A stretch of DNA of 64,000 nt from Candidatus Melainabacteria bacterium (lineage in GTDB: Bacteria; Cyanobacteriota; Vampirovibrionia; 2-02-FULL-35-15), in contig JACQBQ010000024.1 of the NCBI GenBank assembly GCA_016201905.1, forward strand, positions 52,919 to 116,918, read 5' to 3'. Positions 44,455 to 46,967 of this stretch are shown here, one piece after another. Made by a program: the position numbers and the translations under genes. The notes under the pieces were generated by a model. That model was not told the DNA's origin. It was given only the letters and a program-made list of their open reading frames with translations, and ran no database searches. Numbering within the stretch: position 1 is the stretch's first letter; each line of letters starts with the position of its first letter.

Positions 44455-44527
44455 GCCGCGATAGCTCAGATGGTAGAGCAGAGGACTGAAAATCCTTGTG
44501 TCGGCAGTTCAATTCTGCCTCGCGGCA
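44455..44527 (+). tRNA. tRNA-Phe (anticodon GAA)
   Basis: Acceptor stem GCCGCGA/TCGCGGC, D-arm AGCTCAGATGGTAGAGC, anticodon loop CTGAAAA and T-arm GGCAGTTCAATTCTGCC. 73 nt, with no encoded CCA. Confidence 0.9.
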
Positions 44528-44666
44528 AATTCTTCCACAAGAATGTGAGTGATTAATGGTGTGCTAATAAAGCGAACCTTGTTCCAATTTATTTGGACAA
44601 GGTGAGCGGTATTTGCAAGGCTGGTTCGAGGAGCAACGTCACCGCAGAACCAGCTGTTAGAGATAC

Positions 44667-44718
44667 AGCAGAGGACTGAAAATCCTTGTGTCGGCAGTTC
44701 AATTCTGCCTCGCGGCAA
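44667..44718 (+). repeat. 52-bp direct repeat of the tRNA-Phe 3' end (anticodon stem to acceptor end), preceded by a degenerate copy of the 5' half
   Basis: AGCAGAGGACTGAAAATCCTTGTGTCGGCAGTTCAATTCTGCCTCGCGGCAA is identical to 44477-44528. The upstream 25 nt resemble the tRNA 5' half at about 70%. Confidence 0.85.
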
Positions 44719-44748
44719 GTTTTATGTTAATAAAAAGTTTTGATAGTT

Positions 44749-45735
44749 CTAAAGTGTGCTTGTTAGAGCGTGATTGATTCCATCTTTTAACTCAATATAG
44801 CCATGGCTTCTTCTATGATCTAAAACATGCAGGAGTTCTTTTCCTACTTTCATTGTTATTTCTCTGTTATTGTCATTTTTTTCTACTTGTGCCTCAATAT
44901 CTTTACCTGAAACAATTTGTATTTTTATTTCTCCTGATTCAGCAATGTGTTTATAGATAGGCAAGTGCACTATTATCCTTCTAATCCTTGCTTCTAATTC
45001 TTCATTAACTTCTTTTAATTTTTTCTTTGTGTGAATAATATAATGTTCATCATAATATTTTTCTAGTTCGCCACTGTATAGTTGCTTGTGGATTTGTCCT
45101 CTTGCTGCAAGCAGCCTGGCAATCGATGCATTTCTTGTAAGCGATGATTGAGGTGGTTCATATATGTCGACATAGTCGACATTCGGAGTTATGCTTATAA
45201 CTTTTCCATTGCGTTTTACTTCAAGTCTCTCAGCACAACAAACTGAATCCGGATAAAAGCGATTTTTAATTAACTCACCAGGCTTTACTTTTTCATCATC
45301 CCGCAAGCCTTTAAATCCTTGGTACTCTTTAGATGTACAAGCAGCTGTGTCAATAATAAAAAATCCTATGCCTTCATTAAGCTTGCCTTTTAATAAATCT
45401 GGTAAATCTTTATAGCTTGAAATCCAAAGTTTATCTCCTATTTGTATAGGTTTTTTGTATTTAATTGATACTTCATTGTTTATCTCAATTGGAACACAAC
45501 GTTTAGAGACAGTTGTAAATAATGACTCAATTGTTTGTTTTAATTTTAGGTTGATATTCTTGCCTTGTGAAAGTGCCAAGGCTTCATGTGCATTAATTTG
45601 GGCTTGCATTAGTTTATTAACTTCTAGCTCTGATTTTATTTTTTCTACTAGTTCTTTTGGATCTAATCTAAAAGGAGTTATTTGGCCTAATTTGCCGAGT
45701 AAAAATTTTAGTAAAAGCTTTTCAATGTCTGGCAT
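44749..45735 (-). CDS. Hypothetical protein (N terminus MPDIEK...)
   Basis: 328-aa ORF; no motif. Lies immediately beyond the duplicated tRNA 3' end. Confidence 0.45.
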   Translation of the reverse strand: MPDIEKLLLKFLLGKLGQITPFRLDPKELVEKIKSELEVNKLMQAQINAHEALALSQGKNINLKLKQTIESLFTTVSKRCVPIEINNEVSIKYKKPIQIGDKLWISSYKDLPDLLKGKLNEGIGFFIIDTAACTSKEYQGFKGLRDDEKVKPGELIKNRFYPDSVCCAERLEVKRNGKVISITPNVDYVDIYEPPQSSLTRNASIARLLAARGQIHKQLYSGELEKYYDEHYIIHTKKKLKEVNEELEARIRRIIVHLPIYKHIAESGEIKIQIVSGKDIEAQVEKNDNNREITMKVGKELLHVLDHRRSHGYIELKDGINHALTSTL

Positions 45736-45908
45736 ACTATGTCCTTTTTTGGTGTTTTCAAAATCTACAAAGATAAAAATAGACCAATTTTTATGAGCCT
45801 AAAATTAAATAATTTTAATACTATCTTTTAATAGTCTTGTATTAATCAAGGCTTAACGAGAAATCAAATGGAAGAATGAAAGATAGTACAAATGTTTTAT
45901 GTTTTAAG

Positions 45909-46967
45909 TTATCCCGGTCCTCTGCTATCTGTTCCTTTGCTGTGTCTTTCCCCGTGAGATATTCCTATGCCTGCTGCTATTCTTAATAACTCAATATTAG
46001 AAGAAGCGATTATTTCACGTGCAATTCGCTTAAGAATTCTTTCTCTATAATTTTCTGAGATTGATTTCATCGCTTTATTTAGTTCGTTTGTTTCATAAGT
46101 TTTTGGTTTGTATTTGCAGCTCTCAGATTGAATTAAAAATTCTTGTACCACTTTTAAACTTGTAACCATATCCTTATGATATGAAGTGCTTTGCTCATCA
46201 ATTGCTACCTTGAATTTTCTATCAGCAAATGGATTATCTCCGCCACAAGCTAGTATTTCTATTGCATGCGATGCAATTTCTTGCCCTGTATCAACTTTAA
46301 CTTCTAACTCACCACGTATCTGGTGAGTCATCTCATGTGCAAATGCCCCTTTAAAGTAATTTTTTAAATCACTTGTTGTAGTTTCATCATTGTCTTCAAT
46401 AGAACTTAAAACAGAATTAATGTTAGAGTGTGTAATCTCAATAGAGTTAGCACCTGTTACACACATCCCGTAACCCTTTTCACCTATTATATTTATTACA
46501 AATACGAATCTGGAATCATCACAGTTTTTACCAGTAAATTCTTTTGCAGCTAAAAAAGAATCACAAAGTATTTTTTCTCCTTTTTCTAGTACATTGTTTT
46601 TAACACCGCTGCTTGACAGGTGTTTATATAGTAAAGAATTATTTGGAATTGGTTTATAAGGTTTGCCAAGCTCGCGTGCTTCTCCATCTTTAGTCCAGAT
46701 TAAAAACCAAACGTCATAGGAGTCGTTAATTACAGGAAAAACTTTTAAGTATGCATTAAAAAATGGGGATAGATTTTTCCATCCATCATCAAGATGCTTT
46801 AGTCTTTGAATTATGTCTTGAATCTTTGGGTAGGTTGATTTAAAAGGAATAACATTATTTTCTTCTGTCCTTGTTTTTTGTACATCTATTGCCCTTTGTA
46901 TGGGTATGATGTAAGATATGCTTCTTGTGCCTGAGTATGGAATAGTAACTTTTTCTATTTTTGGCAT
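45909..46967 (-). CDS. Hypothetical protein with an HExxH motif (putative zinc metallopeptidase; N terminus MPKIEK...)
   Basis: 352 aa. AFAHEMTHQIRGE contains HEMTH. No other family assignment is possible from sequence. Confidence 0.45.
   Translation of the reverse strand: MPKIEKVTIPYSGTRSISYIIPIQRAIDVQKTRTEENNVIPFKSTYPKIQDIIQRLKHLDDGWKNLSPFFNAYLKVFPVINDSYDVWFLIWTKDGEARELGKPYKPIPNNSLLYKHLSSSGVKNNVLEKGEKILCDSFLAAKEFTGKNCDDSRFVFVINIIGEKGYGMCVTGANSIEITHSNINSVLSSIEDNDETTTSDLKNYFKGAFAHEMTHQIRGELEVKVDTGQEIASHAIEILACGGDNPFADRKFKVAIDEQSTSYHKDMVTSLKVVQEFLIQSESCKYKPKTYETNELNKAMKSISENYRERILKRIAREIIASSNIELLRIAAGIGISHGERHSKGTDSRGPG

Follow-up and report, generated by a model that had tools for sequence, protein, structure and literature searches.

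This analysis concerns a 64-kb stretch of bacterial DNA (64,000 nt, hereafter the window) and, within it, the locus at positions 44,455 to 46,967. The locus comprises an intact tRNA-Phe gene, an orphan copy of the 3' part of that gene a short distance downstream, and two genes, P1 and P2, which lie beyond the copy and are convergent to the tRNA. Proteins exactly matching the products of P1 and P2 are named from a 'Candidatus Melainabacteria bacterium' metagenome-assembled genome (MAG). An initial annotation, made from the sequence alone, had read this arrangement as a likely integration scar or remnant island, or else as a tandem tRNA duplication.

The tRNA-Phe gene and its partial copy

The intact tRNA-Phe(GAA) gene at 44455-44527 (+), in which CCA is not encoded, was the sole tRNA called by ARAGORN in the window. 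It scored 70.2 bits against the Rfam tRNA family, and its minimum-free-energy fold was the cloverleaf (z -3.8). Compared with the corresponding genes at related loci, which are designated here by L numbers, it was identical at 73/73 positions in L005, 71/73 in L018 and 65/73 in L003.

A second, incomplete copy, the orphan 3' fragment, was located at 44664-44721 (+), 137 nt downstream of the intact gene and in the same orientation. The exact 52-nt direct repeat reported in the initial annotation (44477-44528 and 44667-44718) was confirmed; it consists of the last 51 nt of the tRNA and one flanking base. A repeat finder extended it to 58 nt at 97% identity (44474-44531 and 44664-44721), the two copies being 190 nt apart. 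The fragment covers tRNA nt 20/23 to 73 with 1-4 flanking nt, and the first bases of the 3' flank are alike in both copies (GGCAAATT vs GGCAAGTT). The 28-nt core of the repeat occurred exactly twice in the window and was absent from 100 shuffles, and the repeat as a whole stood far above shuffled sequence (z = 46).

The fragment reaches the tRNA's 3' end, and its 5' edge lies just before the anticodon stem, homology breaking off abruptly at tRNA nt 20-23, in the 3' strand of the D stem. A degenerate copy of the 5' half, which the initial annotation had placed ahead of the repeat, was not recovered: the 5' 22 nt of the tRNA scored 10 against the 138-nt spacer between the copies, compared with a shuffle mean of 11.3, and 445/500 shuffles did as well. 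Because homology stops sharply and no trace of the 5' half is present, the edge represents a breakpoint rather than gradual decay.

The fragment scored 31.2 bits in the Rfam tRNA search (gathering score 29), and passes this threshold solely because its 3' two-thirds are intact. It was not called by ARAGORN, and its fold was no better than that of shuffles (z -1.0 to -1.5). A role as a functional tRNA-like RNA was rejected, given this shuffle-level fold and the lack of a D arm; the 5' acceptor strand is missing as well.

No third tRNA fragment or decayed right attachment site (attR) rose above shuffles on either strand of 44719-44760, 45736-45908 and 46968-47100. The 10-mer AGCAGAGGAC at the start of the repeat (tRNA nt 23-32; 44477-44486 and 44667-44676) also occurs inverted at 45921-45930, where it falls in codons of the conserved S-R-G-P at the C-terminus of P2; this site is at the opposite edge of the extra segment described below. 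This inverted occurrence is probably due to chance, as the 10-mer is purine-rich and the peptide is kept in homologues adjoining other tRNAs.

Two Logan assemblies of the same population, obtained independently (L001 and L002; SRR12113409 and SRR12113410), both end exactly 30 nt (k-1) into the second copy. Since a k=31 graph breaks in this way at a true repeat, the repeat is regarded as genuine. It is scarcely credible that the MAG contig was instead wrongly joined, or looped, through a tRNA sequence that different strains or species have in common. A path from a tRNA 3' end through the spacer to another tRNA 3' end needs reads for both junctions, so at least one genome must hold two copies with this spacer; the two independent read sets branch exactly at the repeat ends; and both flanks are syntenic with relatives, with the gene for a major facilitator superfamily (MFS) transporter on one side and P2, an epimerase gene and an Exo_endo_phos nuclease gene on the other. 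Short-read contigs do break at the repeat, and such an artefact is kept under consideration solely because a chimeric join at this tRNA was seen in L017.

In that chimeric metagenome contig (L017, 1577-1856), the 3' part of tRNA-Phe and the P2 side are identical to L018/L019, and the 5' end of the tRNA together with the flank beyond it comes from a GC-rich organism. The contig is a warning on assemblies at conserved tRNAs in general.

Comparison with related genomes

The gene block Exo_endo_phos-(epimerase)-P2 is kept in L003, L005, L008, L012, L014 and L017-L019, with P2 identity ranging from 73% down to 37%. In L003, L005, L008 and L018/L019, P2 is followed after 9-120 nt by a single convergent tRNA-Phe gene, and in L012 a tRNA-Thr gene stands beside P2 in place of tRNA-Phe. 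The closest relative was L018/L019, with P2 71-73% identical to that of the window; in L005 the identity was 65-68%. The tRNA fragment and P1 were absent from the tRNA-Phe/P2 locus in the four related genomes compared. Since both are missing at the same locus in all four, something must have been gained or lost at the tRNA-Phe locus.

The proposal of the initial annotation that both genes are retained island cargo did not survive this comparison. Both genes lie outside the repeats, and P2 is a conserved, syntenic resident beside a single tRNA-Phe in relatives lacking the fragment, so that the cargo could be at most P1, which the repeats do not enclose. When the site was checked in relatives, as the annotation had suggested, it proved to be free of the fragment and of P1 but not of P2. 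The situation that the annotation had named as speaking against an island, with relatives carrying the same two genes next to one intact tRNA-Phe, was encountered for P2 only.

The DNA directly downstream of the intact tRNA also has counterparts in relatives. The downstream spacer D (44528-44626, +) starts with AATTCTT, a sequence common to the window, L003 and L018 straight after tRNA-Phe. Further along, the 38 nt at 44589-44626 (offsets 61-99) aligned to offsets 60-97 of the 100-nt tRNA-to-P2 spacer of L018 with a score of 29 (0/1000 shuffles); the two stretches are equally far from the tRNA, and the match runs up to the stop codon of P2 in L018. Alignable non-coding DNA was about 76% identical between the window and L018. 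Judged from this alignment, the first 99 nt after the intact tRNA-Phe are read as the ancestral intergenic spacer, collinear with the whole tRNA-to-P2 spacer of L018. Because of this collinearity, the extra DNA of the window is placed at 44627-45908.

On the other side of the tRNA, the upstream spacer U1 (44393-44454, +; 62 nt), between the MFS transporter gene and tRNA-Phe, was recognized by homology to relatives. It matched the tRNA-Phe upstream region of L003 with a score of 56 and that of L018 with a score of 33, and in both comparisons 0/300 shuffles were equal. A TATAAA box resembling a -10 element, about 12 nt before tRNA-Phe, may be a putative promoter element.

The extra segment (1,282 nt) consists of a unique 40-nt junction sequence, X (44627-44666, +), after which come the tRNA fragment, a stretch of 30 nt, P1 and an intergenic region of 173 nt. 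X has no similarity to the 5' half of the tRNA. A hairpin of 9 bp (44618-44654) forms between GAACCAGCT in X and GGCTGGTTC at the end of D, and the region 44560-44666 folds with z -4.6. Neither 45736-45908 nor 44718-44760 showed similarity to the spacers of relatives. The interval between the repeats (44529-44666) is 138 nt long and holds no gene or open reading frame (ORF), both ORFs lying past the fragment.

The surroundings of the locus are those of an ordinary core chromosome, with metK, ruvB, hom, hisF, pgi, murF, dnaN, lpd and genes for a GT9 glycosyltransferase and the MFS transporter before tRNA-Phe, and with an NAD-epimerase gene, the Exo_endo_phos nuclease gene and pntAB beyond P1 and P2. 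Neither an integrase nor a transposase was found in 24 mid-size ORFs of the window, which had housekeeping Pfam matches or none; P1 and P2 were searched to E<=1 and twenty further mid-size ORFs at E<=1e-5. The absence of an integrase noted in the initial annotation was thereby upheld for P1, P2 and the mid-size ORFs. The intergenic pieces at the locus do not exceed 173 nt, and the ORFs in the 38-56 kb interval are all accounted for. Three ORFs elsewhere in the window (229-330 aa), at 11670-12533 (+), 31559-32551 (-) and 52116-52805 (+), lacked a Pfam match at E<=1e-5.

No foreign composition was detected. The content of guanine plus cytosine (GC) was flat across the locus, and in GC, GC at third codon positions (GC3) and synonymous codon usage both P1 and P2 lay no more than 1 standard deviation away from the values for 41 window genes.

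A second tRNA gene with an orphan fragment was observed in L010, a Logan contig (ERR15087778), where a tRNA-Cys gene at 12006-12077 (-) has its own diverged orphan 3' fragment 109 nt downstream. This fragment (11874-11897) corresponds to tRNA nt 30-53, with identity starting from the anticodon loop (z 11.5). Counted by hand, it matched the tRNA-Cys of L022 at 25/26 positions and the resident tRNA-Cys at 23/26. Accessory genes of 630 and 224 aa lie past the fragment, in the same 'reversed' geometry as in the window.

The convergent genes

P1 (HY094_05735) occupies 44749-45735 (-) and encodes an orphan protein of 328 aa that belongs to a very small family. Two relatives were found in a collection of 5.8 billion clusters, profile search included, and 13 among 1.84 billion representatives. 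No significant match was obtained in Pfam, NCBIfam, PADLOC or PHROG, a profile search of the PDB was empty, and no homologues were present in the viral contigs of IMG/VR. The AlphaFold2 model was poor (predicted local distance difference test 59.7, predicted template-modelling score 0.40), too poor for a fold search.

Homologues of P1 are found elsewhere, within variable regions that adjoin tRNA-Cys genes. In L022 (6061-8726), 5 nt separate the stop of the homologue from the 3' end of a convergent tRNA-Cys gene, and the homologue is preceded by a gene for a 564-aa protein without a Pfam match. In L010 (5323-8978), near the tRNA-Cys locus described above, the order is a P2 paralogue, a 426-aa protein and a P1 homologue; the 426-aa protein is a homologue of the 564-aa protein of L022 and carries a weak Hjc/PD-(D/E)XK nuclease signature (PF01870, E 7.7e-5). 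The P1 homologue and the 564-aa/426-aa protein may form a two-gene module.

A further homologue, P0019, is 71% identical to P1. Between its stop codon and the next gene there are 139 nt, which leaves room for one tRNA and not for a tRNA together with a spacer and a fragment. The geometry of this contig suggests that a 'tRNA-P1-P2' arrangement exists in nature.

Among more distant relatives, the core of P1 (residues 84-182) aligned within a 1,344-aa protein with FHA and DnaJ domains (L023:4018-8052), the 3' end of the match overlapping the start of the Pfam FHA match. Other distant relatives are 557-892 aa long, and one of them has HEAT repeats.

P2 (HY094_05740), at 45909-46967 (-), encodes a 352-aa HExxH protein with an intact C-terminus, the motif being HEMTH at residues 211-215. 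The initial annotation was correct in placing both ORFs on the strand opposite to the tRNA, in reading their starts as MPDIEK (P1) and MPKIEK (P2), and in finding no recognizable family for either. The similar starts invite the idea that the two proteins are related, which was rejected (hhalign probability 0.1%).

The collection of 5.8 billion clusters held 17 homologues of P2. In a scan of GTDB species representatives, homologues were confined to Melainabacteria MAGs, with up to three paralogues per genome, and overall all members found came from Melainabacteria MAGs or unassigned metagenome contigs; IMG/VR viral contigs contained none. One 556-kb contig (JAHFBG010000001.1, MAG nzgw193) carries three paralogues (L014, L015 and L016), which are 37-42% identical to P2 of the window. 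The family has the N-terminal consensus M-x-x-I-x-K, and the next 50 or so residues are variable and of low confidence.

Residues H211, E212, H215 and E230 are invariant in 17-18 sequences and lie on helices 195-217 and 229-240 of the structural model. Metal would be bound by an H211/H215/E230-type site in this model. An HExxH motif with a downstream Glu on the next helix is the pattern of the gluzincin clan MA(E), and a thermolysin-like catalytic fold is likewise indicated. The spacing from His to Glu is 18-19 residues in M1 peptidases and thermolysin, and is shorter in P2 (H215 to E230).

Compared with the known gluzincins (thermolysin M4, the catalytic domain of M1 aminopeptidases and the minigluzincins), P2 differs in lacking a sequence-level match to any curated peptidase family or PDB sequence. 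No Pfam, NCBIfam, PADLOC or PHROG family was reached at threshold, including DUF4157, which the initial annotation had named as a candidate, and every other Pfam HExxH family; with the family profile, the PDB yielded no sequence at E<0.5. The most apt description of P2 is that of a putative zinc metallopeptidase of gluzincin fold that is restricted to its lineage.

The terminator scan revealed a hairpin with a T run resembling an intrinsic terminator after the epimerase gene (46983-47008, -), which separates that gene from P2. An Rfam PyrG-leader hit at 46971-47051 (-) was discarded, since it scored 34 bits, below the gathering score of 65, and corresponds to this terminator hairpin.

Origin of the arrangement

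Starting from the observed anatomy, synteny, flank homologies and absence of an integrase, a direction of the event, a donor and a recombination mechanism can be proposed. Tentatively, and with considerable reserve, the locus is interpreted as a gene-turnover junction 3' of tRNA-Phe, a recombinational insertion or allele junction that would have imported a piece of another tRNA-Phe locus. The intact tRNA-Phe, the upstream spacer, the first 99 nt after the tRNA and P2 would be ancestral, and the 1.28-kb segment (44627-45908) would have been added precisely where the ancestral spacer ends and the stop codon of P2 follows.

The fragment and P1 would have arrived jointly, their source being a different tRNA-Phe locus or allele with the end of P1 near the tRNA's 3' end. 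At the P2 side the join would have been homologous and at the opposite side illegitimate, of the homology-facilitated type; equivalently, the locus would be the junction of a 'tRNA-spacer-P2' allele with a 'tRNA-P1-P2' allele. A direct repeat would be present because donor and recipient both carried the highly conserved tRNA-Phe, and the fragment would be a passenger without tRNA function.

The donor arrangement is supported by P1-family genes that are directly convergent to tRNA 3' ends elsewhere, as in L022. The identity of the two copies over 52/52 nt, set against about 76% spacer identity to L018, favours a recent event or gene conversion. Given that tRNA-Phe is identical at 73/73 positions in L005 despite a protein difference of about 30%, a related donor would give an identical fragment, and the native-like composition of P1 and P2 suggests that the donor would indeed be a relative.

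Homology-facilitated illegitimate recombination is described (PMC3240628) as combining one homologous anchor with one illegitimate join in naturally competent bacteria. An event of this kind would give a clean P2 side and an abrupt junction with the filler X inside the tRNA, and would involve no recombinase gene. The likeness to this process is purely inferential.

Several observations weigh against an insertion of this kind. A donor locus with an intact tRNA-Phe at 30 nt from P1 was not directly seen, and no source was found for X, which matched nothing of 11 nt or longer elsewhere in the window and shared no 13-mer with the loci compared. The comparison covers four related genomes, and no phylogeny polarises P1 as gained or lost. 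Furthermore, a conserved hairpin lies 3' of the tRNA in the window and L018 and 5' of it in L003, a switch of sides that the insertion leaves unexplained. Finally, the tRNA-Cys locus of L010 shows the same odd geometry (tRNA, about 110 nt, 3' fragment, accessory genes), and this recurring pattern hints at a site-specific process.

The hairpin (44576-44603) is contained in spacer D. The region 44571-44606, which includes it, matched a hairpin 4 nt upstream of the L003 tRNA (score 33, 0/1000 shuffles), and two extra base pairs inserted on both stem arms could be seen by eye in the alignment of the two. Its reading as a dispersed repetitive extragenic palindrome (REP) or miniature inverted-repeat transposable element (MITE) was rejected, the hairpin being present in a single copy in the window. 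A search of 19 loci with the hairpin pattern returned no copy; this exact degenerate pattern was weak and missed even the known L003 homologue.

Its change of side would be explained by an old tandem duplication of tRNA-Phe with reciprocal loss. In such a scheme, an ancestor with the order tRNA_a - spacer - tRNA_b would have lost copy b in L018 and copy a in L003, the window would retain a intact and b without its 5' 20 nt, and P1 would have been inserted separately; the locus would then show tRNA gene turnover caught midway, through local duplication followed by truncation of the downstream copy. Reciprocal loss is the simplest account of the position of the hairpin on opposite sides of the tRNA in L003 and in the window and L018, and the copies have the same orientation, lie close together (190 nt) and share similar first 3'-flank bases.

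Nevertheless, a tandem origin is considered unlikely. No 5' half is left and the boundary is sharp, and a duplication preceding the split of the window from L018 predicts about 6 substitutions in 52 neutral nt, as estimated from the 76% spacer identity, whereas none was seen. With zero substitutions, gene conversion or a very recent truncation would have to be invoked. No relative examined had two tRNA-Phe copies, the downstream flank of the second copy and the P1-P2 intergenic region are unlike the L003 downstream flank, and more separate events would be needed than for insertion from another tRNA-Phe locus. Tandem duplication with pseudogenisation, as put forward in the initial annotation, therefore stands only if the copy was truncated: decay by point mutation would leave scattered substitutions, and here the two copies match exactly over 52 nt at the 3' end and the 5' 20-22 nt cannot be detected.

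Comparison with known systems

In the formal scheme of Islander, a genomic island at a tRNA gene (tDNA) consists of an intact tDNA and a displaced 3' fragment of it, encodes a tyrosine integrase and measures 2-200 kb (PMC4383910). The locus resembles such islands in several respects, namely an intact tRNA with a cognate downstream 3' end fragment on the same replicon and in the same orientation, an identity block that begins just 5' of the anticodon stem, as at anticodon-centred attachment (att) sites (PMC4383910), and a site that is variable between related genomes.

Important differences were also noted. Islands place 2-200 kb between tDNA and fragment, whereas the interval here is 138 nt of mostly ancestral host spacer. 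Islands have a tyrosine integrase within or overlapping them; here none was found, and composition does not deviate. The variable gene, P1, lies outside the repeats. The classical order after integration is tRNA - element - fragment - old flank, and that of the locus is reversed, with tRNA - old flank - fragment - new gene. As it stands, the locus is not a member of the Islander class: configuration, orientation and end fragment agree with it, while length, integrase and flank order do not.

A classical integrase island could be reconciled with the locus if it had been inserted at tRNA-Phe through an anticodon-centred att site and later deleted down to 138 nt, in which case P1 and P2 would belong to the flank of the host and the fragment would be a displaced attR. 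A matching element would carry an attP with TAGAGCAGAGGACTGAAAATCC...GGCA. The fragment, a downstream 3' end in the same orientation that starts just before the anticodon stem, fits the configuration, orientation and end-fragment criteria of Islander (PMC4383910). The P0019 contig geometry, which suggests a 'tRNA-P1' host arrangement, and the second case of a tRNA with an orphan 3' fragment in the group, at the tRNA-Cys of L010, also point this way. From the L010 case, integrative elements probably act on tRNA genes in this group.

Even so, a decayed island of this kind is judged quite unlikely at tRNA-Phe. Its interval of 138 nt has no ORF, the 64 kb yielded no integrase, and no compositional signal was found. 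What follows the intact tRNA is not element DNA but sequence collinear with L018's host spacer; for the island to be rescued, L018 must have carried it too and then have lost everything from that point to the P2 stop codon. A perfect 52-nt fragment would also be unexpected for an event predating the split of the window and L018. The integration-scar reading of the initial annotation holds to the extent that a genuine 3' tDNA end fragment lies on the right side and in the right orientation at a variable locus, and fails on the 138-nt interval, the reversed flank order and the missing integrase.

The layouts at tRNA-Phe in the window and at tRNA-Cys in L010, both on Melainabacteria-type contigs, have in common an intact tRNA, a spacer of about 110-140 nt, a 3' fragment that begins at the anticodon loop or shortly before it, and convergent accessory genes outside the repeat pair. 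It is very improbable that an undescribed site-specific process lies behind this recurrent layout. If it did, small cassettes without an integrase of their own, each bearing a tRNA 3' fragment as a tag, could be inserted by a trans-encoded integrase at a secondary site that lies downstream of tRNA genes. Alternatively, the fragment could be retained because it serves the convergent gene as a terminator or a processing signal.

Partial tRNA sequences that are mis-called as tRNA genes, fragments that arise when genetic elements integrate, are described by van der Gulik et al. 2023 (PMC9897764). The fragment in the window is alike in being a partial, non-canonical tRNA that reaches the Rfam threshold through its intact 3' portion, and differs in having no identifiable associated element and in having its parent gene within 140 nt. 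The locus is one more case of an orphan tRNA fragment, situated in a gene-turnover hotspot downstream of a tRNA.

Implications

A tRNA with a perfect repeat of its 3' end is usually read as an integration scar with its neighbours as cargo; caution is advised, as the repeats here enclose ancestral spacer. The locus opens no long-standing question, and the sole reading with real novelty would be that of a recurrent mechanism by which cassettes receive tRNA fragments as tags.

For the organisms concerned, P1 represents an extremely rare orphan family, and P2 a gluzincin-fold family without a match to any curated family that has so far been found only in this group. In non-photosynthetic Melainabacteria, the region downstream of tRNA genes is a hotspot of gene turnover, even where mobile elements are not recognizable.

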